From: a virus
Lineage: Duplodnaviria; Heunggongvirae; Uroviricota; Caudoviricetes
DNA length: 64,000 bases
Direction: 5' to 3' (one strand)
Virus record (IMG/VR): IMGVR_UViG_3300028992_000036
The notes under the pieces were generated by a model, which was given only the letters and a program-made list of their open reading frames with translations, did not search any database and was not told the DNA's origin. The translations under genes and the position numbers were made by a program. Shown one piece after another: positions 4,620 through 16,174 of this stretch (positions are counted from its first letter, which is position 1; the number at the start of each line of letters is the position of its first letter).

Positions 4620-6194
4620 TCACTCGTTCTCTTGAGTAGATGAGTCCCCATTCCCTCGGGGTTGATCTTGCCCGCTTTCTTGGGCTGCACCACGATCATA
4701 AGTAAGTACTGACTTATTTTCAAGGGTATTTAGATCATTTTTTGGCGGAAAATTCAAGAGATCTTTATCAAATTCCTTTTTCATCGCCTCAGTAATGTTC
4801 GGGAAAATCTTCTCAATAAGCATTTCCATCTGGTGACGACGTACAGAGTCCGGTGCCTGAAGTAATGACAGTTTCTCGGCAACAGAAAATTCATCTGTAA
4901 GGCCACGAATATCGAAACTTTCTGGATACGCAATTAAAGAGTGGTCTTCGTCCAGATCTACCCCCATCCATTTCGCAACCAGTAGCATGATTTGGCGTTC
5001 AGCCCTTTCCAGACGCTCTGCTTTTGTGACAAGCAAGCTATTTACACGCTGGAAGTCATACATTTTTGCGGCACCAGATGAGTTATCAATTCCCTGTGCG
5101 TTGTCCTGCTTCGTTCGCTCACCAGCGACACCAACTGAATGGTAGATTTCGTTAATCACCGTCTTAATCGTAGTGATGATCATCTGAGCTTGTTTCGGGT
5201 CTGGTGACAAATAAAACGGCTGGTTTCCACCTTCAGAATCGTAGGTGAAGACTCGCTTTGTGCCCATTTCAAGCACTTTAGTGTGGTTTTCATCACCAGG
5301 TAAAAGCGACTGTACCGGTATAGCCAACTGGCTAAATGTCTGATCCTGAATAATGGCATCAAGGTTTGACAGATAGTTTGCAACCGCACGATCAAGATAA
5401 GCGATATCATCGATCAACGATGGGCTGAAATACGGTGATTCACTTTCTCCAATACAATCAACAGGAAACACAGGAACTACGCTGAGATTATGCTCACCGC
5501 TATCCTCTAAAATAACTTTTGCCTGACGGCGACCTGCTCCACCAGCGCCCTTCTTCACTTCCTCACGGAACAGATACCACTCGTTTTGTGTCCACAGACG
5601 ATAACGTTGGTATTCCTGACCTGTAGAAGTAAAAGGATCTGCGTCATCACGAGCGACTTCCACAATTAACGCCCACAACATATTCCCGTCGTCGTCCCAT
5701 GCCACATCCAGCATTTGCTGAGGTGAAATCCAGTAGGCGTAGGCGCGAGCATCTTTCTTTTTCTCGTCAGCTACTGACTCAACATCACCACTCATCGTGC
5801 TATCGACAACAACCCATATGCGACCGTAAATAGACGACTGCAAATCAATAGCGGCCATAAATGAGTCAATAGAGGCATTCTGGCGAGTCGCACGTTTCCA
5901 GAAATTGCGGATCTGCTCTGGTGCCTCTTCGATATTTCTATGAATGTCTTCTTTAAAGAGATATTTGTTGATGAGGTTTACCACCTCACGAGTGTGGTTG
6001 AAGCGATAAGCACGCTCAACTCGCTCCTTAAACTCCTGATCTCCCTCTTTAAAGTAACGAAAGATATTGTCTGTAAACCAACCACGCCCGCCAGCGTAAG
6101 TGCTGGCGAGGAAGTCCCAATGTTCTTTTTTCTTTTCGTATTCCGGGTGGCGTCGCGCCACCAGATCCTTAATTTGTTTGTCGTTCAATTCCAT
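4620..6194 (-). CDS. portal protein (putative)
   Basis: 524-aa ORF immediately downstream of terminase large subunit; size and position typical of portal. Confidence 0.65.
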   Translation of the reverse strand: MELNDKQIKDLVARRHPEYEKKKEHWDFLASTYAGGRGWFTDNIFRYFKEGDQEFKERVERAYRFNHTREVVNLINKYLFKEDIHRNIEEAPEQIRNFWKRATRQNASIDSFMAAIDLQSSIYGRIWVVVDSTMSGDVESVADEKKKDARAYAYWISPQQMLDVAWDDDGNMLWALIVEVARDDADPFTSTGQEYQRYRLWTQNEWYLFREEVKKGAGGAGRRQAKVILEDSGEHNLSVVPVFPVDCIGESESPYFSPSLIDDIAYLDRAVANYLSNLDAIIQDQTFSQLAIPVQSLLPGDENHTKVLEMGTKRVFTYDSEGGNQPFYLSPDPKQAQMIITTIKTVINEIYHSVGVAGERTKQDNAQGIDNSSGAAKMYDFQRVNSLLVTKAERLERAERQIMLLVAKWMGVDLDEDHSLIAYPESFDIRGLTDEFSVAEKLSLLQAPDSVRRHQMEMLIEKIFPNITEAMKKEFDKDLLNFPPKNDLNTLENKSVLTYDRGAAQESGQDQPRGNGDSSTQENE

Positions 6195-6220
6195 TTGAAT
6201 AACCTTAGATAATTACCTAC

Positions 6221-7477
6221 CTATCGAGAACCACCAAGAATAACACGGTTTTTGACTGGATACCTACGATGTACTGGATAGCCCAATGCGTCTGCACTAT
6301 GCTCAATGCCACCTGTCTTATCCATATCTCGTGTTCCAGGCTTGTAGATGACTTTTTCCAGTGAATCAATCAAATGCTTGCACTTCGGATCGATATACAA
6401 CCGGATATCTCCAGATGCGGTCATCAGCATTCGGTTAACAGCATTAACACGATCCGCAATTGGCGGGTGCTTTTTCGAATAATCGACACGTAAGAATCCC
6501 TTCTCTTTGAATATGTCGACGTCAGACTCCCCGCGAGCATGTTGGCGATAAGCACCTGCCGGATCTGGAAATACCGTTATCTGTGATTTCCAGCGCCAGA
6601 AGCGTCTCTCAAGCTCATCACAAACCTCTGCCGTGTTAGAGGAAAAGAGCACCAATTCATCAATTGCCCATAGCTCACCATTTGGCTGAGGTTGCAAAAT
6701 TACTGAAGACATCGGGTCAATGTTGAAGTCCTGCCCTACCCATATAGGCAACCGAGGGTTGAACTGAAGCGGTTTTACATGCACGTTACGATCGAACGGG
6801 TAGTAAACGCGCCCGGACATGTTCTCAAAGCTCGCCAGGTACTCCTGAGCGAACGATTTCGGGTCCATATCGTTCTTAGCAGCTTCAATTTCCGCCGTAG
6901 GCACAAACGGAGAATCGGCAGTTACAAACTGCCAGCTCTTCCACTGTCCCTTTCTTTGCAGCTCTACGTTCTGGCCTATAGTCCACAGTTTGTGAAATTC
7001 CGAGAAACCTTTTGGCGTACCAATGATAAGTGCACCGCCGCGTGTCGATGAAAGAGTAGGTCGTAACACCTTGTACCAGGTGTCAGCCTTCATATCCTGA
7101 AATTCATCAAGCACTACAAAATGCAACGCTACGCCGCGCAGAGTGTCAGGCTTATCAGCACCTTTGAGGGCGATCTCCGAACCGTTCTTCAACACGATTG
7201 TCATCGTGGTGTCGTTCTTTTTCCTAACCCACTTACGAGGCAGAACTTCCTGTAGATCGTCCCACAAAATCTGGCGAGCCATCTGGTAAGTAGGAGCGAC
7301 ATACCAGACCCTTTGCTTTTTTTCCTTTGCCGCCGCACGAATAATAGTGGAGATCGACAACCGGGATTTTCCCCAGCGTCGACCAGCACAAACAACTTTA
7401 AATCGATGCGGAGACTGGAAGACTTTCATCTGTCCAGAATGCAGTTGCACAAGACTGAGCGAGGACGGGATTGCCAT
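6221..7477 (-). CDS. terminase large subunit
   Basis: Walker A VVCAGRRWGKS, Walker B LHFVVLDEFQD, C-terminal nuclease-like acidic motifs; start overlaps small-subunit stop. Confidence 0.8.
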   Translation of the reverse strand: MAIPSSLSLVQLHSGQMKVFQSPHRFKVVCAGRRWGKSRLSISTIIRAAAKEKKQRVWYVAPTYQMARQILWDDLQEVLPRKWVRKKNDTTMTIVLKNGSEIALKGADKPDTLRGVALHFVVLDEFQDMKADTWYKVLRPTLSSTRGGALIIGTPKGFSEFHKLWTIGQNVELQRKGQWKSWQFVTADSPFVPTAEIEAAKNDMDPKSFAQEYLASFENMSGRVYYPFDRNVHVKPLQFNPRLPIWVGQDFNIDPMSSVILQPQPNGELWAIDELVLFSSNTAEVCDELERRFWRWKSQITVFPDPAGAYRQHARGESDVDIFKEKGFLRVDYSKKHPPIADRVNAVNRMLMTASGDIRLYIDPKCKHLIDSLEKVIYKPGTRDMDKTGGIEHSADALGYPVHRRYPVKNRVILGGSR

Positions 7478-8109
7478 TATTCGTCCTCCCCTTCACTTCC
7501 ATCATCTGTCGCATCAAATTCGCTTAGAGCTTCTTCTTCCAACGTCTCAAGCAATTCGTCATCGATGATTTCAGGCTCGTCGTCTTCCTGACGTAATTTC
7601 GCCACCTGGGAAGGCGTAAGCTCACCAAATACCAGATTCGGAATTTCTTCCTCGTCATTTTCCGCATGATCCATGCCCAATGCTTTGGACGAAACTTCAA
7701 AGCATTTTGCAAGGGTATTACTGGCTCTCTGTAAGCTCTTGAGAGAATCCTCAATCGCCCCTAAAGGCTTACCCTCACGTTTGGCCGTAGTGACTTCGAC
7801 CATCACCATCTGCCCCAACGCATACGCCCAGCCGTCATAACGTGTACGACGTTCTTCTATCTTTTCCGCACGGGCTTTAGCGCGAAGCTCTGCGTCAGAT
7901 TTAAGAGACTCACGAACCATCTTCCCAACAGAGTCCGCGCCTTTCTCTAATCCTCGCTTTTTGAAATGTCTGGAGAGTGTTTCACGACGAATGCCGTACT
8001 CTTCCTCCAGCTTTGAGAGTGTATATTCGCCTGACGTCCATTTGGCTTCAGCTTCGGCCCACTCCGCTGGTGTCAGGCGAGTTTTTACCTCGTCTTTTTC
8101 GACCGTCAT
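7477..8109 (-). CDS. terminase small subunit (putative)
   Basis: 210 aa, N-terminal HTH-like region (RRETLSRHFKKRGL), very acidic C-terminus, immediately upstream of and coupled to terminase large subunit. Confidence 0.5.
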   Translation of the reverse strand: MTVEKDEVKTRLTPAEWAEAEAKWTSGEYTLSKLEEEYGIRRETLSRHFKKRGLEKGADSVGKMVRESLKSDAELRAKARAEKIEERRTRYDGWAYALGQMVMVEVTTAKREGKPLGAIEDSLKSLQRASNTLAKCFEVSSKALGMDHAENDEEEIPNLVFGELTPSQVAKLRQEDDEPEIIDDELLETLEEEALSEFDATDDGSEGEDE

Positions 8110-8226
8110 AGATCCCTCTAAAACACACAGAGCGCGTCCATGCGCTCTAAAACAACTTGTTTACTGCATTTTCTAACCAACTTGTTTTCTGGGTTGTTTA
8201 ATTAGGTCTGGGCATGTCTTATTAAG

Positions 8227-8281
8227 CCTGCTTCCGTATATATTTAATAAGTTACTTATTATTTATATATACAGAAGCAGG
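8227..8281. repeat. 55-bp palindrome CCTGCTTCCGTATATA...TATATACAGAAGCAGG, copy 1 of 2
   Basis: 16-bp arms with 1 mismatch around an AT-rich loop; near-identical copy at 33724-33780; embedded in a longer imperfect inverted repeat (about 8205-8310). Confidence 0.55.
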
Positions 8282-8305
8282 TCTTTAAATAAGCTCCCAG
8301 ACCGA

Positions 8306-8572
8306 TTACATCACCAGTAACTTCGCTTTGGCTCGACCTAAAGTGGTTAACCCAAGAGTTCGGCGGTGATAGCGATTGTCACTGCGTTGGCGCGTATGCC
8401 CTTTCTCCACAAGCCCCTTTTTTATCAGAGCGCGAATTGAGAACTGGATACTTTGCTTGGTTGTCTTGTACGGCAAAACTTCAAGCAATTCGTCCAGATC
8501 AAGTAGATAACCTCGCTCATAACCGAGATTGAGCGTTTTGATGATGTCCTTTTGTTTATCGGTTAACGTCAT
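8306..8572 (-). CDS. small basic protein, possible winged-helix DNA-binding regulator
   Basis: 88-aa ORF; basic helix-rich sequence; first gene of the block upstream of the terminase operon. Confidence 0.4.
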   Translation of the reverse strand: MTLTDKQKDIIKTLNLGYERGYLLDLDELLEVLPYKTTKQSIQFSIRALIKKGLVEKGHTRQRSDNRYHRRTLGLTTLGRAKAKLLVM

Positions 8573-8581
8573 GGCAAATCC

Positions 8582-9472
8582 TTATGCCGGTAAAGCAATT
8601 TCTAACGGTTTATCCAAAGGTTGTTTGTCGAATGCCAGCAGTGGCAGCGTGTCAGGCAGTCGACGACCAAAGTCAGGGTTTCGATACACCCCATACAACG
8701 GAGACGTAAAGCTCAGGTTGTGAATGTCCTTGAGCAACTTCACAATGCTGGCCTCGTCCACCAGACTGTCGGCAATGTCCTGAATCGTCGTGCCACGATT
8801 CCGCCCAGCTTTTGCCAGGGAACTGTTCTTGTGGTAGTCCGCCACCAGATCACGCAGTGCACGGCGACGACGAGACTCGCTCATTGCGAACAACTCTTTG
8901 ACGATCGCCTCGTTATCACCCGGGTCGGAACGGAAATGGCGCTGGAATACACGCAGTGCACTTTCATAGCTCTTCGGTCGCTCAGGGCGGATGAACTTAA
9001 ACCCTGCTTTCATGGCGAAGGGATTGTATTTGCTCATCGAGGACTGGATCTCAATGATTGGCCGGTCATGCATCCTGCTAACCAGGTTAATCATTCGATA
9101 AGAGACGCCTACGCCACGATACTGAGTATCCACAACTGAGCGACTGATCACCGCAAAGTTGTTATTCACGTACCGACCCCAGTACTGGTTAGCCACGGTG
9201 GTATTAGTGGTTGGTTTCAACTTAGGAAACATGCGGTGGCGAGGTGCCAACAGTAGTTTCGGGTAAGCCATAACCACGACGCCCACCAGACGGTCATCAA
9301 GTTCGCAGCGATAGTAAGTTGGCGCGAAAGGTTTGCCGTCTGTTTTGTAGTGAAGCGACTTAAGAGCGTGCCAGTCCTCTACAGTTCCCTTTGTAACAGT
9401 CATTCGCTCCAGAAAGTCCAGATGACGCGGAAACTCTTCAGGGCGGTAGCGTTTAATGATGATGTCCGTCAT
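8582..9472 (-). CDS. hypothetical protein with GNAT-like motif (QYRGVGVSYRMINLV)
   Basis: 296-aa ORF; motif resembles acetyltransferase acetyl-CoA binding motif A; stop overlaps start of downstream ATPase. Confidence 0.4.
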   Translation of the reverse strand: MTDIIIKRYRPEEFPRHLDFLERMTVTKGTVEDWHALKSLHYKTDGKPFAPTYYRCELDDRLVGVVVMAYPKLLLAPRHRMFPKLKPTTNTTVANQYWGRYVNNNFAVISRSVVDTQYRGVGVSYRMINLVSRMHDRPIIEIQSSMSKYNPFAMKAGFKFIRPERPKSYESALRVFQRHFRSDPGDNEAIVKELFAMSESRRRRALRDLVADYHKNSSLAKAGRNRGTTIQDIADSLVDEASIVKLLKDIHNLSFTSPLYGVYRNPDFGRRLPDTLPLLAFDKQPLDKPLEIALPA

Positions 9473-10134
9473 GAATGGACCTCATCGTGACTACCATTGT
9501 GATATTCCACCTTCACGCGTTCTTTGTAGTGCTTGGTGATCTGCATATCCGGGCGCAGCGCGTTCTTCAGGTCTTCGTGAGTCGTCGCCACCATTACCGT
9601 CGCACCAACCTTTCGAGCGGCACGCTGGAGGTTAGACGCCACAACCTGAGCGGTTACACGGTCGAGAACAGCGCCGAACTCGTCAGCAGCCCACACTTTA
9701 GCGCCTGACTCAATCAGTTTGGCAATCTTGAGACGATATTTCTGGCCGTCTGACATTTCAGAAGGCTTGCGAACAAACAGATATGCATCGTTCAGACCAG
9801 CCATAGATAACAACCCAAGCGCATCACTGGTCGTTTTGCCCAACTGATCGATGACGTTAACCTCATTATCGAAGGTAAAATCATCGATGGAGGCTACAGA
9901 CAGCCCTTCATCCTTCATCTGTCGTTGCAACTCGCGCAGCACAACGGATTTGCCGGAACCGGATTGGCCGGTGATGTACACCACATCGCCCTGCTTCACT
10001 TCCAGCTCCAGATTGTCGTAAAGCGTCCACTCTTTTTCGTCCAGGCCAAGCCCGAACGACTCAGCGATTTCCAACGTGCGCGTGGTTTTATTTACGCGTG
10101 TCTGAAACGATACGTTGATGATGTATTTGCTCAT
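9469..10134 (-). CDS. stand-alone ABC-type ATPase domain protein
   Basis: Walker A GQSGSGKS, signature-like SDGQKYRL, Walker B VWAADEF, H-loop VATTHE; 221 aa with no transmembrane partner nearby. Confidence 0.65.
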   Translation of the reverse strand: MSKYIINVSFQTRVNKTTRTLEIAESFGLGLDEKEWTLYDNLELEVKQGDVVYITGQSGSGKSVVLRELQRQMKDEGLSVASIDDFTFDNEVNVIDQLGKTTSDALGLLSMAGLNDAYLFVRKPSEMSDGQKYRLKIAKLIESGAKVWAADEFGAVLDRVTAQVVASNLQRAARKVGATVMVATTHEDLKNALRPDMQITKHYKERVKVEYHNGSHDEVHS

Positions 10135-10799
10135 GCAGCCATCTCCCCGGAAGAGATCTTCTCCGCATATGCCACAAATGCGTCTACCCCGCTTTCTCCC
10201 GTCATTTCTTCCATGTGGGCAAGCAAATCACCAACAACAATGGCAGAGCCAGCAGGGAGCGTTTTAAAGCCCAATACGTCGACAACACGTACTTCTTCCG
10301 CTGCAACTTCACGACTGATCTCGGTGTGTTCATCCTTCTGTCGTTTAGTTTCTTCGCCAAGATCGATAACTAGCGAGTCGGTGTCCATTTCTTCTGTCAT
10401 ACTGCCAACGAGAACATTCAACTCACGCTCTTCAAAGCCGAAAACCTCGATATCGTCCAGAACAAGCGACTCAAGCTCTTTCTGTAGCTTAATTGCATCG
10501 TAATCAATGCTGGCAAGTCGGTTATCTTCAAGGCGCTTCGCACGAACCTCGTCATCACTGAGATCATCGCGAACAATAACCGGTACGCGCTCAAGTCCAG
10601 CAAAAATTGCAGCCTCACGGCGGCCGTGGCCAGTAATAATTACGTCGTTCTTATCGACCGTAATTGGCTGGTCAAATCCGCGCTTTTTAATGGCTGCGGC
10701 TAGATCTCGGATCTGCTGTTCATCATGCTTTTTGGCATTCATCTCATAGGGAATAAGATCTGCCGGGTCGCGATATACGATTTCAAACTTTTTGGTCAT
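10131..10799 (-). CDS. ParB-like nuclease domain protein (paralog 1); start curated to MTKKFEIVY
   Basis: ParB/Srx-type N-terminal motif IITGHGRREAA; TAATG overlap with upstream paralog. Confidence 0.65.
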   Translation of the reverse strand: MTKKFEIVYRDPADLIPYEMNAKKHDEQQIRDLAAAIKKRGFDQPITVDKNDVIITGHGRREAAIFAGLERVPVIVRDDLSDDEVRAKRLEDNRLASIDYDAIKLQKELESLVLDDIEVFGFEERELNVLVGSMTEEMDTDSLVIDLGEETKRQKDEHTEISREVAAEEVRVVDVLGFKTLPAGSAIVVGDLLAHMEEMTGESGVDAFVAYAEKISSGEMAA

Positions 10800-11497
10800 T
10801 ACATACGCTCCTTGTAGTAGTCGACCAGCCACACCAGAGCCTCACCAGCGTTCTCCATTTCATTACCGGTGTTAATAGCCTGCTCTTTGATGATGTTTTT
10901 TATGGTTTCTGCAACACGATCTGACGCATCGAAAGTTACTTTGAAGCGCATGGTCTGATGTTCCGCACCCACACGTTCGGTTTTCTCTCGTTTGTCGGTA
11001 TCGACAGGCTCATCACTACCACGAGACAACGCCTCCAGTGCTTCAAGGTCGATTGCCGCCTCTTTTGCTAAAACCATCGAGATTTCGTCGTCATACGGGG
11101 CGATTTCAGACAGTTGATAGTCAAGTTCTGACTGAATTTCTTCAATGAAGCGTTGCAATGCGATTTGGTCGTCTTCACCGTATCGCTCGTTGTCCACCAG
11201 TGACATCTGTTTAGCTACGACATCGCTAATTTTGCCCACAGAAAGCACCGGAACCGTTGAAATTCCTTGCTCAATAGCAGCACGCCAGCGATGTTCGCCG
11301 CCGAGGATTTCAAAAAATCCATCTTCAAGTTCACGAGCCAAAATTGGCTTAAAAAAGCCCAATTTTTCGATAGAACCTTTCAGTTTTTCAAAATTCTGCG
11401 CACCAACCGAATTGGTGTTCCAGGTATTCGGGCGAAGGTTGGCAACATCAACCTGCAAAATCGTGATTTTTACATCCATTTTATTGCTACAATCCAC
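10799..11497 (-). CDS. ParB-like nuclease domain protein (paralog 2)
   Basis: ParB box-like ILGGEHRWRAA; 232 aa; no ParA-type partner in window. Confidence 0.65.
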   Translation of the reverse strand: MDCSNKMDVKITILQVDVANLRPNTWNTNSVGAQNFEKLKGSIEKLGFFKPILARELEDGFFEILGGEHRWRAAIEQGISTVPVLSVGKISDVVAKQMSLVDNERYGEDDQIALQRFIEEIQSELDYQLSEIAPYDDEISMVLAKEAAIDLEALEALSRGSDEPVDTDKREKTERVGAEHQTMRFKVTFDASDRVAETIKNIIKEQAINTGNEMENAGEALVWLVDYYKERM

Positions 11498-11561
11498 TAA
11501 GTAATCACTTACTTATTATAATAGCCAAATAACATACAAAAGGCACTAAGGAAAGAGGTTT

Positions 11562-13121
11562 ATGACTGTTCGGATTGTATCTAACGCAGTAAATGCGCTT
11601 ATTTCTGGCGCAGATGACAAGGTAAAGCAACTGGTGCAGCAAATGTTGAGCTACGAAGTCGAGACTGGCGACTGGAAGGGCACAAGCACGATGTTCAACT
11701 GGAGTAAAAACTCGTTCCCTGCTGGCTTTGCCAAGCCTGTAGCGGCGAACTTGAACAAGGCGGGCATCAAATGTGTTCATATCCGCAAAGACAAAGCCCC
11801 GGCGCTTGGTAAACCAAATCCGGCGGTTAACCCATTCCCATACAATCCTGATTATGCGTATCAGGATCAGACTGTGGAAACACTGGTTCGAGAGGGAATG
11901 ATGATTGCGCAGATCGCTACTGGTGGCGGGAAATCTAACGTTGCCTGCAAAGCAGCTGCACGTATCGGTCGAATGACATTATTTTTAACAACCCGCTCTG
12001 TTCTGATGTTTCAAATGGCCGAAAACTTCCAGAGATCCATCGACTACCGCGCCGAAAATGGCGAACCGTGGTTAAAAGACCAAAAGGTTGGAGTCATTGG
12101 CTCGGGTGAGTTCCAGGTATCACGACATATCAACGTCGCTACAGTTCAAACTCTTGCAAGTTTCCTCGAAGAACCACCACGCGATGCAACACCAGATAAG
12201 AAAAGCTACCACCTCAAACGTCGGGAGTTGGTGAAACGCTTCCTTTCAAGTGTCTCTCTTCTTATTCTGGAAGAGGCGCATGAGTCTTCAGGCTCAAATT
12301 TCTATGACATCGCCAGATTATGTGTGAACGCAGACTATCGTCTGGCGCTTACAGCCACGCCGTTCATGAAGGATTCGACGGAAGCCAACATGCGCCTGAT
12401 GGCGGTGGCCGGGCGAATTGAAATTAAAGTCACAGAAAAGTACCTGATTGATCGAGGCATTCTGGCAAAGCCGTACTTCCTTTATCATAAAGTTGCCTAC
12501 AAGCCAGACGAGGCCAGAATCAAGGCCGAACTTGCCAACAAACACCTCAATTTTAGAGTTGGTATGAGCACCGCCTACCAAAAGGCTTATCAGTTGGGGA
12601 TCGTGTATAATTTGGGACGTAACGAGGCCATTGTTCGCGAAGCATTGCTCTATAAGCAACATTCTCTCAATTGTATGACTCTGGTTCGTCTTAAACGCCA
12701 CGGGCAAATCCTGATGGAAATGATGAAAGAGTCCGGCCTTAGAGTTGACTTCATCTATGGGGAATCTAACCAGGCGACAAGGCAAGCAAAGCTGAACAGT
12801 TTAGCGTCTGGAGAAATAGATGTTTTAATAGGCTCGACTATTCTGGATGTCGGTGTTGATGTGCCAAGCGTTGGTGCGGTCATTCTTGCTGGTGGTGGGA
12901 AAGCAGAAGTTGAAATGAGGCAGCGTGTCGGTCGTGGCTTACGAGCCAAAAAAAATCAGGCAAACGTGTGTTTTATCACTGATTTCATTGACATTAGCAA
13001 CAAATACCTGTTGTCTCACTCTTATGAGCGAAAACACATCATCGACACCACACCTGGCTTTGCAGAAGGTGTATTGCCTATTGATGGAGCATTCGATTTT
13101 GGAGTTCTGAAACGAGATTAG
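11562..13121 (+). CDS. superfamily 2 helicase (DEAD/DEAH-type)
   Basis: Motif I IATGGGKSN, motif II LILEEAHE, motif VI QRVGRGLR; AAGGAAAGAGG Shine-Dalgarno; divergent from the ParB/ATPase block. Confidence 0.75.
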   Translation: MTVRIVSNAVNALISGADDKVKQLVQQMLSYEVETGDWKGTSTMFNWSKNSFPAGFAKPVAANLNKAGIKCVHIRKDKAPALGKPNPAVNPFPYNPDYAYQDQTVETLVREGMMIAQIATGGGKSNVACKAAARIGRMTLFLTTRSVLMFQMAENFQRSIDYRAENGEPWLKDQKVGVIGSGEFQVSRHINVATVQTLASFLEEPPRDATPDKKSYHLKRRELVKRFLSSVSLLILEEAHESSGSNFYDIARLCVNADYRLALTATPFMKDSTEANMRLMAVAGRIEIKVTEKYLIDRGILAKPYFLYHKVAYKPDEARIKAELANKHLNFRVGMSTAYQKAYQLGIVYNLGRNEAIVREALLYKQHSLNCMTLVRLKRHGQILMEMMKESGLRVDFIYGESNQATRQAKLNSLASGEIDVLIGSTILDVGVDVPSVGAVILAGGGKAEVEMRQRVGRGLRAKKNQANVCFITDFIDISNKYLLSHSYERKHIIDTTPGFAEGVLPIDGAFDFGVLKRD

Positions 13122-13897: not shown

Positions 13898-14422
13898 ATG
13901 ACAACCAAAGATATTACCTACGGTATCCAAGCTGAACTCTGGCCGCGAGATTACACTAACGTTGAAAAACTACTGATGTTCTGGCGCAGAGAACAAATTC
14001 CTGTAAGGGTCACTCTCGAAGATGGCCAGGCGTTTTGCATGTACGTTTATGGCCTCATGCCATCTCGTAACAAAGTTGACCTTTGCCCAGCCCCTTTTGA
14101 CAAAGAAAATCGTATAAGGCTCCCACTTGAACGCATTAGTACAATTGAATCAGGTGTGGTTGACAGTATCGCTCACGATTTCAAAGGTCGACTAACAGTT
14201 CACCCTGATTATGTCGATAATCGGCCATCACGCCGCGATTTTTTTGCAATTTGCAACCAAGCCTACAAAGCAAACAAATCTATAAGGGTGTACATGGCGG
14301 ATGGCCGTGAAATTGAGGGGGTGTCAGCAGGCGCAGATGCTTGTCAGGTTACACTACGTGTCGAGAACGGTAGAAAAATAGTTGTTTTGTTCGATTGGGT
14401 TGAACGAATTTTGCCTTTTTGA
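13898..14422 (+). CDS. hypothetical protein (start curated to MTTKDITY)
   Basis: ATG 4 nt after the lipoprotein stop; ORF-track start at 13820 overlaps the upstream gene. Confidence 0.45.
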   Translation: MTTKDITYGIQAELWPRDYTNVEKLLMFWRREQIPVRVTLEDGQAFCMYVYGLMPSRNKVDLCPAPFDKENRIRLPLERISTIESGVVDSIAHDFKGRLTVHPDYVDNRPSRRDFFAICNQAYKANKSIRVYMADGREIEGVSAGADACQVTLRVENGRKIVVLFDWVERILPF

Positions 14423-14425
14423 GTT

Positions 14426-14734
14426 ATGAAATCGATATTGTTACCACCATTATTTTTACTTTGCTCAGTTACGGCAAATGCAATGGACTATAAGCCTGTC
14501 ATTCAGTCGCTGATGAATGACGTGTGCTCAACGTCTCAGAATGTATCAGTTTGCATGTATCAATTTTCGGCAGCCGTAAAAGCAGGAAAAGCGATAGGTG
14601 AGAATGTGGAACTGTGTAAGAAAGTGGCAAATGAAGAAAGGGCAATGTTGGATTGCGAATCTAGCGAGTCATCGGCACAGTTCGTTGATGCGCTATTTGA
14701 CACCAATCGTAAGGCTGTAGAGTCTGTTCAATAA
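14426..14734 (+). CDS. small secreted/periplasmic protein
   Basis: N-terminal signal peptide MKSILLPPLFLLCSVTANA; 102 aa. Confidence 0.5.
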   Translation: MKSILLPPLFLLCSVTANAMDYKPVIQSLMNDVCSTSQNVSVCMYQFSAAVKAGKAIGENVELCKKVANEERAMLDCESSESSAQFVDALFDTNRKAVESVQ

Positions 14735-14920
14735 ATCTATAAGGTTAATAACCGGCTAAGTCCGGCTATTATTTTTCACATCACTTCTTTATATCTACAA
14801 ATCAAATAACCTAAATATATATAAGGTCTAAAGCCGCAATCGATTATTTATTTAGGGAACACCTTCGACGATCTCGCTTTTATTTCTAGGACTTTCATCC
14901 CTGCAAAAAATTTTAAAAAA

Positions 14921-14948
14921 ACACTTGCAATCTATTTTCGCGTATCGA
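14921..14948 (+). promoter_or_regulatory. putative sigma70-type promoter TTGCAA-16 bp-GATAAT upstream of AT-rich cassette
   Basis: Hexamer match and spacing in an AT-rich intergenic region about 70 bp upstream of the 15018 start. Confidence 0.3.
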
Positions 14949-15017
14949 TAATTGAACTCGTCGAAAGCGAAGACGCTAACGACAATAAATTTTAAATTTA
15001 CATAAGGAAAAATTATC

Positions 15018-15668
15018 ATGGCTAACATTATCATTTCTAAAAAATCCATCATTGAAGCTGCTTCCATTGTATCCGATGAACTGCGCGAAAAAGCAGATCT
15101 GGCAACTCAAACATATAACGAACATTATAAAAATGGTACGCACACTAAAGCAGACAAAGCAAATATGCAAGCTGCGACCACTAAACTTGCTTACTTCATC
15201 AACAACGTCGTAAACGCAGTAGAAGACGAAAAATTATGCTCTGTTTTCTACTATGCGATTAAAGCAAGCAAACAAGCGCCAGAAGTATTTTTCCGTGATG
15301 CAATGACTAATAGTTATTCTCTGGAAAAACTGGTTTATCTGGTTAAATCAATTAAATCTGGTAAATGCGTTTATTCCATCGCTGATATGTCAGGATCTCG
15401 TGTATTCGCTTTAATCGATATGATTAACGACGAGATCGACACGTTCACCAATGGCGCTGTTTTCGATTTAATGAATGAAGCTAAAAAAGCGTGCGAAATT
15501 AAATTGGACGCTGGCTATACTCAAGCCAACCAGTTGATCAATCTTTGCGAACGTCTTGGACTTGTTGAGAAAGTCAAAGGAATGGGAAGCGCAAAAGCTG
15601 GTACACAGCAATATCGCTTTATCAAGAATGATTTCTACAATTATTTAGCTGATGCTTTTAAAGCGTAA
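15018..15668 (+). CDS. hypothetical protein of AT-rich cassette
   Basis: 216-aa ORF with Shine-Dalgarno AAGGAAAAA; markedly AT-rich codon usage versus neighbours; followed by hairpin terminator. Confidence 0.5.
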   Translation: MANIIISKKSIIEAASIVSDELREKADLATQTYNEHYKNGTHTKADKANMQAATTKLAYFINNVVNAVEDEKLCSVFYYAIKASKQAPEVFFRDAMTNSYSLEKLVYLVKSIKSGKCVYSIADMSGSRVFALIDMINDEIDTFTNGAVFDLMNEAKKACEIKLDAGYTQANQLINLCERLGLVEKVKGMGSAKAGTQQYRFIKNDFYNYLADAFKA

Positions 15669-15682
15669 TTAATGGAATCAAG

Positions 15683-15705
15683 CGCCCACTATGGGCGCTT
15701 TAAAG
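15683..15705 (+). terminator. hairpin GCGCCCACTATGGGCGC + T-tract
   Basis: Perfect inverted repeat; identical element repeated at 16179-16205. Confidence 0.5.
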
Positions 15706-15718
15706 GAGCTTTAAAAAA

Positions 15719-15922
15719 ATGGTCAGCTATGACAAGATCCGCGCAAAGTATCGCGCAAAGTATCGCGCTTATAAACTGGAATTAATCGATGATTTGATCG
15801 CGCAACGCGACCAATTAAATTTTACGTTTTCTGATTTGCTTAACAGCAAGCGAGATTGCAAGCGCAAACGTGAATACTTACGTTTAAGCGCATTAATCGG
15901 AAAACTTCAAAATTCTATTTAA
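15719..15922 (+). CDS. small basic protein (YRAKYRAKYRA repeat)
   Basis: 67-aa ORF with AAGGAGC Shine-Dalgarno. Confidence 0.4.
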   Translation: MVSYDKIRAKYRAKYRAYKLELIDDLIAQRDQLNFTFSDLLNSKRDCKRKREYLRLSALIGKLQNSI

Positions 15923-15943
15923 TTTTTTTTAAGGAGCTTAATC

Positions 15944-16174
15944 ATGTTTGTTCTTATCGCTGGCGTTAACGTCCATAATGAATATTATGTTAATCGCATC
16001 GCTGGGATCGCTGGTTACGCTGGGCGCGCAGTCGAGCTTATAGATGAAACGACGCGCAAAATTGACTTATTGAGCGACCAGGAGCGAAAAAAAGCAGACG
16101 TGAACGACGCTGATATATTTTTAATGTTAAAAGCGTTTGTAGAAATGGGATTTAAAATCAGTTTACACAAATAA
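15944..16174 (+). CDS. small hypothetical protein
   Basis: 76-aa ORF with AAGGAGC Shine-Dalgarno; followed by hairpin + T7 terminator. Confidence 0.4.
   Translation: MFVLIAGVNVHNEYYVNRIAGIAGYAGRAVELIDETTRKIDLLSDQERKKADVNDADIFLMLKAFVEMGFKISLHK

Follow-up and report, generated by a model that had tools for sequence, protein, structure and literature searches.

A widespread, misannotated ParB–ABC ATPase–GNAT cassette beside the terminase genes of an SSU5-type phage-plasmid: a candidate case of ParB-assisted phage DNA modification with a different enzyme

That a ParB protein can serve as the partner of a DNA-modifying enzyme was experimentally demonstrated only in 2026, when ParB176 turned out to be needed for the action of the thymine dioxygenase 5mYOX176 on double-stranded DNA (dsDNA); in the same work, ParBs (27%) and terminases (19%) ranked among the genes most often found near phage 5mYOX genes (O'Toole et al., PNAS 2026, PMC13229309). 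Fusions of ParB to N6/N4 methylases or to DUF4417 are frequent among phage ParB folds and enriched in prophages, and these folds bind CTP, ATP or GTP, one bacterial ParB–acetyltransferase fusion binding GTP (Kaljevic et al., PNAS 2025, PMC12704722). DpdB, a ParB-like NTPase, likewise assists a DNA base-modifying enzyme in the DpdA/DpdB pair (PMC12839542). Here we compare with these systems a locus found in a 64,000-nucleotide stretch of tailed-virus DNA (IMG/VR record IMGVR_UViG_3300028992_000036, hereafter the window), in which a 4.8-kb block of genes (8306-13121) stands next to the terminase genes. The conserved core of this block is a three-part cassette, made up of an ABC ATPase, a GNAT acyltransferase and a protein of the ParB type, that recurs in thousands of tailed viruses of bacteria and archaea. 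We consider it likely that the three form one DNA-associated enzyme, and we read the cassette as ParB-assisted phage DNA modification with a different enzyme, widespread and so far misannotated. Our best reading of how it acts, which has about an even chance of being right, would be a ParB-assisted, ATP-dependent transfer of an acyl group onto phage DNA before packaging.

All six open reading frames (ORFs) that the initial annotation had placed in the block were recovered at the same coordinates, and its domain calls held, by Pfam for the ABC, the two ParB_N and the superfamily 2 (SF2) helicase domains and by weak matches for the winged helix-turn-helix (wHTH). The block and the adjoining terminase genes are:

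8306-8572, minus strand, wHTH-like gene (88-amino-acid product)
8582-9472, minus strand, GNAT-like gene (ORF call)
9469-10134, minus strand, ABC ATPase gene (ORF call)
10131-10832, minus strand, ParB2 gene (start at 10799 in the Cyrano annotation)
10799-11497, minus strand, ParB1 gene (start at 11479 in the Cyrano annotation)
11562-13121, plus strand, SF2 helicase gene, divergent from the other five genes
7477-8109, minus strand, TerS-like gene (phrog_867)
6221-7477, minus strand, TerL gene (Terminase_6N, 3e-9; phrog_10250/phrog_2)

The TerS-like, TerL and portal genes lie downstream of the cassette on the same strand. Neighbouring genes overlap by 4 nt at the ParB2/ABC and ABC/GNAT junctions and by 1 nt between ParB1 and ParB2 when the annotated ATG is used, and the GNAT and wHTH genes are spaced by 9 nt. 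With these short overlaps and the 9-nt spacing at the four minus-strand junctions, the translational coupling proposed earlier for these five genes is plausible. Over the block, identity reaches 98.9% with Escherichia phage Cyrano, 83% with Salmonella phage SSU5 and 100% with a 113-kb plasmid of E. coli SJC33. The block was found in 248 of 5426 complete E. coli genomes, on plasmids in every case; the window therefore comes from an SSU5-type E. coli phage-plasmid. Every gene of the block belongs to a large PHROG family, with names that are uninformative or misleading ("ABC transporter", "ParB-like partition protein").

The ABC protein matches PF00005 (ABC_tran) with 50.1 bits (cut-off 25) and carries all the elements of an ABC ATPase, namely a Walker A motif (G56-S63, GQSGSGKS), a signature (M127-SDGQ, MSDGQ), a Walker B motif with the catalytic glutamate (D151-E152, AADE) and the H-loop histidine (H186). 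No membrane protein is encoded in the operon, and the ABC protein has neither the permease nor the substrate-binding partner of a transporter; its partner is the GNAT protein, and in relatives the two are fused. Databases wrongly label this protein "ABC transporter". The GNAT-like protein of the initial annotation proved to have a complete, single GNAT alpha/beta fold by strand order, interrupted between helix a4 and strand b6 by about 85 inserted helical residues (169-254). The acyl-CoA pyrophosphate-binding motif, sought as Q/R-x-x-G-x-G/A after strand b4, is intact (Q117-YRGVG-122): R119 and G122 are invariant among 38 homologues, as are H41-Y42, E141 and Y260, and the equivalent R and G are also invariant in the two families of relatives described below. 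A sequence search of the GNAT protein against the PDB gave nothing significant. Its likeness to phage Mu Mom, a GNAT-fold adenine methylcarbamoylase (PDB 8bv8), is at the level of the fold only, and there was no match to the Mom family (PF25680) at E<=0.1. Unlike the window protein with its helical insertion, Mom also has no ABC ATPase or ParB partner.

A profile search with the GNAT protein against 1.84 billion representative proteins found 891 relatives, the distant ones being proteins of 450-500 amino acids in which the match lies C-terminal to about 200 other residues. This N-terminal part is an ABC_tran domain by Pfam. Profile-profile comparison (hhalign) aligned the SSU5-type GNAT protein with this fused family over 251 columns at a probability of 100% (E 2e-40), and a compact phage type of 365-410 amino acids was related too (probability 95.9%, E 6e-9). 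The window ABC protein in turn shares homology with the ABC portion of these fusions, and both window proteins are homologous over their full length to the COG2401-type architecture; some deposited records even name the window GNAT "ABC-type ATPase fused to a predicted acetyltransferase". From these alignments, the ABC and GNAT proteins of the window are the split N- and C-terminal halves of a widespread ABC–GNAT fusion of the COG2401 type, which in other viruses is mostly a single polypeptide. Unlike the fused COG2401/'MK0520' ATPase-acetyltransferase, the two halves are here separate, translationally coupled genes, and the literature searched describes no viral, terminase or ParB context for the COG2401 family.

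Relatives of the window often carry small inserted genes at the ABC/GNAT junction, a hot spot that is empty in the window itself (4-nt overlap). SSU5 carries an 84-amino-acid ORF at this place (SSU5_128; 1235-1489 of the SSU5 locus), Rhizobium phages a gene of the DUF2829 family (Tad2, anti-Thoeris) and two others, and an Ectothiorhodospira prophage Phage_gp49_66 and RyR-domain genes (inserts at 6043-6898 of locus L007, 8961-9999 of L004 and 9262-9736 of L005). One ABC–GNAT homologue of 847 amino acids (P0165) has an intein with a LAGLIDADG domain inside its ABC domain.

When IMG/VR was scanned with the alignment of SSU5-type GNAT proteins, all matches fell in nearly identical SSU5-like contigs, giving no distant context. 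Gene neighbourhoods were read around the compact ABC–GNAT type, at the best 80 of at least 600 IMG/VR loci. A ParB-like gene was the immediate upstream neighbour of ABC–GNAT at 54 of the 70 loci that had enough flank. Annotated pairs of ParB and ABC–GNAT include genes 1 and 2 of Gordonia phage BiggityBass and gp85 and gp86 of Rhodococcus phage Jace, as well as genes of Leptospira LE4, Lactococcus P335 (Orf23, Orf24), Streptococcus Javan141 and Pasteurella Pmp13, and at three archaeal (Bathyarchaeia) loci ParB_N, ABC and GNAT make up a single polypeptide. With at least 600 matches in IMG/VR and 548 in GTDB genomes, the cassette is present in phage-plasmids of clinical Enterobacteriaceae, in integrated prophages, in archaeal proviruses and in a T4-like and a Mu-like phage. 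Two clusters of neighbours at the archaeal loci (2 and 4) were set aside, as their alignment consensus lacked the features of a ParB or a winged helix and Pfam gave nothing significant for them. Many Bathyarchaeia metagenome-assembled genomes contain tailed-virus modules in a kept order (tail tube ... TerL > ABC–GNAT; loci L096-L167), and one of them, CAYRSV01, has an ABC–GNAT gene on at least seven separate contigs. This points to a set of related proviruses or to one very abundant virus that was binned together with its host.

Both ParB proteins of the window have the ParB/Srx (ParB-CTPase) fold, with PF02195 (ParB_N) matches of 35.0 bits for ParB2 (phrog_930) and 49.9 bits for ParB1 (phrog_723) against a cut-off of 26.3. 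In ParB2 the GxxRxxA and DN motifs are kept (G68/R71/A74 and D103/N104 across 66 cassette ParBs), and its phmmer matches include Javan141 gp25 (E 1e-26), P335 Orf23 (8e-23) and Pmp13 gp47 (1e-19); by these matches, ParB2 is orthologous to the ParB that accompanies ABC–GNAT in other phages. ParB1 aligns to Spo0J, ParB and Noc (Spo0J 1vz0, E 2.6e-9), with GEHRWRA in place of GERRxRA, and is a second, more canonical and Spo0J-closer paralogue specific to the SSU5/nickie lineage, in which two ParB genes were found at all five loci compared (L003-L007).

Two ParB-fold proteins, one of them aligning with Spo0J and Noc, and the label "partition protein" that PGAP gives to one of the two would fit plasmid partition by an unusual pair of ParB and ABC ATPase. 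We regard this as extremely improbable: TIGR00180 scores only 43 bits for both proteins against a cut-off of 58.45 for full-length partition ParBs, there is no ParA in the block, SSU5 has its ParA-like gene, with a small partner, about 30 kb away, and most relatives have the ATPase fused to a GNAT enzyme. The presence of the cassette in integrated prophages, archaeal proviruses and T4-like and Mu-like phages speaks against partition as well, and the earlier statement that this is not a classical partition system was borne out.

Beyond the cassette, an IMG/VR search with a ParB2-type alignment found 584 relatives, of which we analysed the best 75 loci outside the SSU5 type. At 37 of the 75 the domain lay in a long ORF, 30 of these being ParB_N+N6_N4_Mtase fusions and six ParB+DUF4417. 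Directly downstream of 24 stand-alone genes of the clade we found a TET-associated glycosyltransferase (TAGT) in five cases, a C5 methylase in four and an N6/N4 methylase in four, the rest comprising one Mom, one PAPS reductase, one Tad2-like gene and a few others. From these fusions and neighbours, the ParB2 clade is a general companion of phage DNA-modifying enzymes, and it is a ParB of this clade that stands beside ABC–GNAT in the cassette. The likeness to phage ParB_N–N6/N4 methyltransferase fusions (PF02195+PF01555) is close: they belong to the same ParB clade, with a near-identical consensus of about 125 residues, and occupy the same genomic slot, and ParB2 itself matches phrog_498 (ParB–methyltransferase) at 5e-32 and, over its ParB domain, the PADLOC model MTase_II at 3e-17. 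Unlike these fusions, which depend on S-adenosylmethionine, the cassette has a separate ParB (fused at the three archaeal loci), and its enzyme would need ATP and presumably acyl-CoA. In the same way, the cassette would by analogy resemble 5mYOX176/ParB176 in that a short phage ParB gene adjoins the gene of a post-replicative DNA-modifying enzyme, often with terminase genes in the neighbourhood (19% of contigs in the mining of PMC13229309), and it differs in that the partner is not an iron/2-oxoglutarate dioxygenase, being an ABC ATPase with a GNAT protein, known from sequence, and in that the SSU5 lineage has two ParBs. ABC–GNAT is mentioned in neither PMC13229309 nor PMC12704722. Of the functions suggested at the outset, it is a role in DNA modification that these ParB-clade associations favour.

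The position beside the packaging genes had also raised the idea of a packaging function. The positional link itself is real and strong, a TerL gene being only a few genes away at about 60% of loci. A fused ABC–GNAT gene directly adjoins a Terminase_6N TerL at 45 of 80 archaeal proviral loci, Firmicutes prophages have a T7-type TerL two genes downstream of ABC–GNAT, and a TerL of one of three families follows at most four genes downstream at 45 of 73 IMG/VR loci, a proximity that a random gene of a 40-110-kb phage would, we estimate, reach only a few per cent of the time. One could imagine a packaging accessory that aids the terminase, much as HNH proteins help terminases of the HK97 type, for instance by acetylating nucleoid or chromatin proteins and stripping them from the DNA ahead of the motor, or one that modifies TerS, TerL or the portal. 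However, position is not diagnostic of function here, because ParB–DNA-methyltransferase fusions, which are not packaging factors, occupy the same slot, with TerL at most six genes downstream at 25 of 29 loci; the pre-terminase position is the usual place of DNA-modifying enzymes partnered by this ParB clade. The cassette also lies far from the terminase in Mu-like Burkholderia phage phiE255, in a Porphyromonas phage, in Nonlabens phage P12024S (in the replication module) and in T4-like Vibrio phage vB_VmeM-32, and the enzymes described next would be unexpected neighbours of a packaging factor. We consider a packaging role quite unlikely; the position alone does not imply it.

These neighbours are enzymes of a tailoring type that vary from phage to phage. 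A formyltransferase gene lies beside the cassette in three unrelated phages, namely phiE255 (gp30), a Porphyromonas phage and BiggityBass, whose gp3 (L170, 1823-2473) has 42% identity to the phiE255 protein and is for that reason probably wrongly annotated as a tRNA-methyltransferase. In Jace, a PanD-like aspartate decarboxylase and a gp88-like gene follow the cassette (gp87-gp88; L171, 7610-8721), and a PanD-like gene follows ABC–GNAT at four IMG/VR loci, with the gp88-like gene at three of those four, while an Amidoligase_2 gene follows the cassette in two Firmicutes prophages. PanD is the enzyme that makes beta-alanine. In phiE255, the cassette follows the tail-fibre genes, a site that we take to be where mom lies in Mu.

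A further alternative is acyl transfer to a target that is not DNA, for instance a host protein, a small signalling molecule or a tRNA or aminoacyl-tRNA, in the service of host takeover or anti-defence and with ParB as a nucleotide-binding regulator only. The formyltransferase and PanD could equally indicate aminoacyl-tRNA or metabolite chemistry, and the formyltransferase does have an Fmt-like HPSLLPxxRG motif. We nonetheless find a non-DNA target unlikely, given the linkage and fusion to a ParB clade that otherwise partners DNA-modifying enzymes, the terminase-proximal slot shared with DNA methylases and the existence of fusions to DNA-related proteins. One such fusion is a 1260-amino-acid PolB–ABC–GNAT protein with an N-terminal family-B DNA polymerase, found as an identical ORF in two metagenomes (L261/L262, 6001-9783); it is confined to one virus, its relatives having PolB alone, and is weak evidence for a DNA-related role. 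The other is an ABC–GNAT–TFIIB fusion, also present among the homologues.

Coming back to acyl transfer onto DNA, a point of comparison is TmcA/NAT10, in which a helicase-type ATPase combined with a GNAT domain carries out the ATP-dependent N4-acetylation of cytidine in RNA, so that the logic of an NTPase-coupled GNAT would be that of the cassette. Unlike TmcA/NAT10, with its RecD-like ATPase and RNA substrate, the cassette has an ABC ATPase, and no homology was seen beyond the GNAT fold. Starting from the domain identities, the split and fusion relation, the ParB linkage and the shared ParB clade and terminase-proximal slot, we infer a DNA substrate, an acyl donor and its chemistry, a timing and an anti-restriction benefit as follows. 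ParB2, together with ParB1 in the SSU5/nickie lineage, would engage phage dsDNA and recruit or activate the ABC/GNAT heteromer, holding the enzyme on dsDNA as a phage ParB does for the thymine dioxygenase. ATP binding and hydrolysis by an ABC dimer may then drive access to the target, with closure of the dimer positioning the GNAT active sites, and late in infection GNAT would move an acyl group, possibly of an aminoacyl type, onto DNA, with a CoA thioester as the donor. The modified DNA would next be cut at cos and packaged by the terminase, and the likely benefit would be the one that Mom and phage methylases confer, namely shielding from host nucleases.

Whether ParB, ABC and GNAT covalently modify DNA at all is, in our estimate, evenly balanced. 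Several points weigh against it. The argument for DNA as the substrate is one of guilt by association, and the ABC domain is nearest to domains of the transporter and ABC-F type, not to Rad50, MutS or UvrA. At 13 of the 70 IMG/VR loci, the cassette has no ParB inside three genes. SSU5 already encodes two DNA methyltransferases, and the ambiguous chemistry of the formyltransferase and PanD, set out above, counts on this side too. The literature searched (SSU5, ParB, COG2401 and nickie contexts) holds no paper on the cassette and no acyl DNA adduct from any phage that bears it.

More tentatively still, ParB–ABC–GNAT might be an unrecognised ATP-dependent system of DNA acylation or aminoacylation that installs a new base modification in a large fraction of the tailed viruses of bacteria and archaea, and the neighbouring formyltransferase, decarboxylase or amidoligase might, as part of the same tentative proposal, elaborate the adduct in some lineages. 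If true, an ABC ATPase with a GNAT protein would join the short list of post-replicative DNA-modifying enzymes, and ParB would be repurposed as the partner of such an enzyme in a second, far more widespread case. The carriers would include SSU5-type phage-plasmids in about 5% of sequenced E. coli, where the genes are now labelled "ABC transporter", "partition protein" or "hypothetical", and a new adduct would bear on restriction evasion, on host range in phage therapy and on how readily these elements can be sequenced or cloned. Should the target turn out to be something other than DNA, the cassette would still stand as a conserved viral enzyme of three parts.

The initial annotation had treated all six genes as one block that resembled modification, anti-defence or defence modules and matched no named system. 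The latter point stood. PADLOC (Dnd, Ssp, Dpd, BREX, MADS etc.) gave no full-length marker matches, the domain-level ones being mad3 over residues 31-68, PbeA/DpdF on the helicase C-domain and MTase_II on the ParB domain, and NCBIfam gave no family-level assignment for the proteins of the block. Profile searches with Pfam, NCBIfam and PADLOC found none of the PAPS-reductase, DndB/Ssp or Dpd components that had been considered. Unlike DpdA/DpdB, the cassette comes without a tRNA-guanine transglycosylase or preQ0 gene, and the Dpd models of PADLOC match the helicase only, and weakly.

As for the unity of the six genes, Pseudomonas phage nickie, Rhizobium phages, an Ectothiorhodospira prophage and two metagenome-assembled contigs share the full order (helicase <> ParB-ParB-ABC-(small inserts)-GNAT-wHTH-gap-TerS-TerL-portal), with proteins of 41-45% identity, and Nonlabens phage P12024S has a ResIII helicase three genes away from ABC–GNAT, observations that would suit a single DNA-processing or defence-like system. 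Synteny within the lineage carries little weight, however, because the whole SSU5/nickie lineage is collinear. Outside it, the helicase was found at only one of 80 archaeal and two of 80 IMG/VR cassette loci and the wHTH at none of 80 and one of 80; the helicase is transcribed divergently, and the PADLOC matches are domain-level only. A six-gene system is very unlikely in our view: only ParB, ABC and GNAT travel together across viruses, and the conservation of the six holds within the SSU5/nickie lineage and essentially not elsewhere.

By this distribution, the wHTH protein and the helicase are lineage-specific neighbours and not core components. The 88-amino-acid protein (phrog_900) has weak winged-helix matches (LexA_DNA_bind, E 0.05; Sta1/Lrs14, E 0.003-0.007), and its position is kept at all five loci of the lineage. 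The helicase has ResIII, DEAD and Helicase_C domains, all above cut-off (E 1e-14 and 5e-13), which place it in SF2, and matches XPBII (2e-12) and T4 UvsW (5.5e-8) in the PDB (XPB/UvsW/RecG-like). Syntenic only inside the SSU5/nickie lineage, it is probably a replication or recombination gene at a module boundary.

The gap between the wHTH gene and terS (8110-8305), which separates the cassette from terS, contains one further feature, found by a repeat search:

8205-8243 / 8265-8303, no strand, imperfect 39-nt inverted repeat around an AT-rich 21-nt centre

In GenBank, the linear records of both Cyrano and SSU5 have their two ends at window position 8243|8244, at the edge of the AT-rich centre, and the SSU5 termini are inverted repeats of one another. 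The repeat at 8205-8303 is a probable cos site, looking like a cosN with a staggered cut of about 20 nt, which would put the cassette at the far right end of the chromosome as packaged.

The palindromic 13-mer AAACAA-N-TTGTTT has 31 strand matches in the window (at most two mismatches) where 3.9 are expected, a number reached in 0 of 100 shuffles. Two copies precede terS (8150-8187) and about 14 more sites lie between 13137 and 41535 (for example 17294, 18058, 18961, 19446, 29861, 30575 and 31304), many of them in, or at most about 30 nt upstream of, the starts of minus-strand ORFs. The 13-mer is probably an operator or promoter element of a phage regulator. Between its repeats and terS, 19 nt upstream of the terS start codon, a GC-rich hairpin with a T-rich run resembles a terminator (8128-8149, minus strand). 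Downstream of the helicase operon, the region 14001-16000 has a G+C content of 0.39 against about 0.47 for the window and contains ORFs such as 14426-14734, with a signal-peptide-like N-terminus, and 15018-15668; it may be a recently acquired accessory region.

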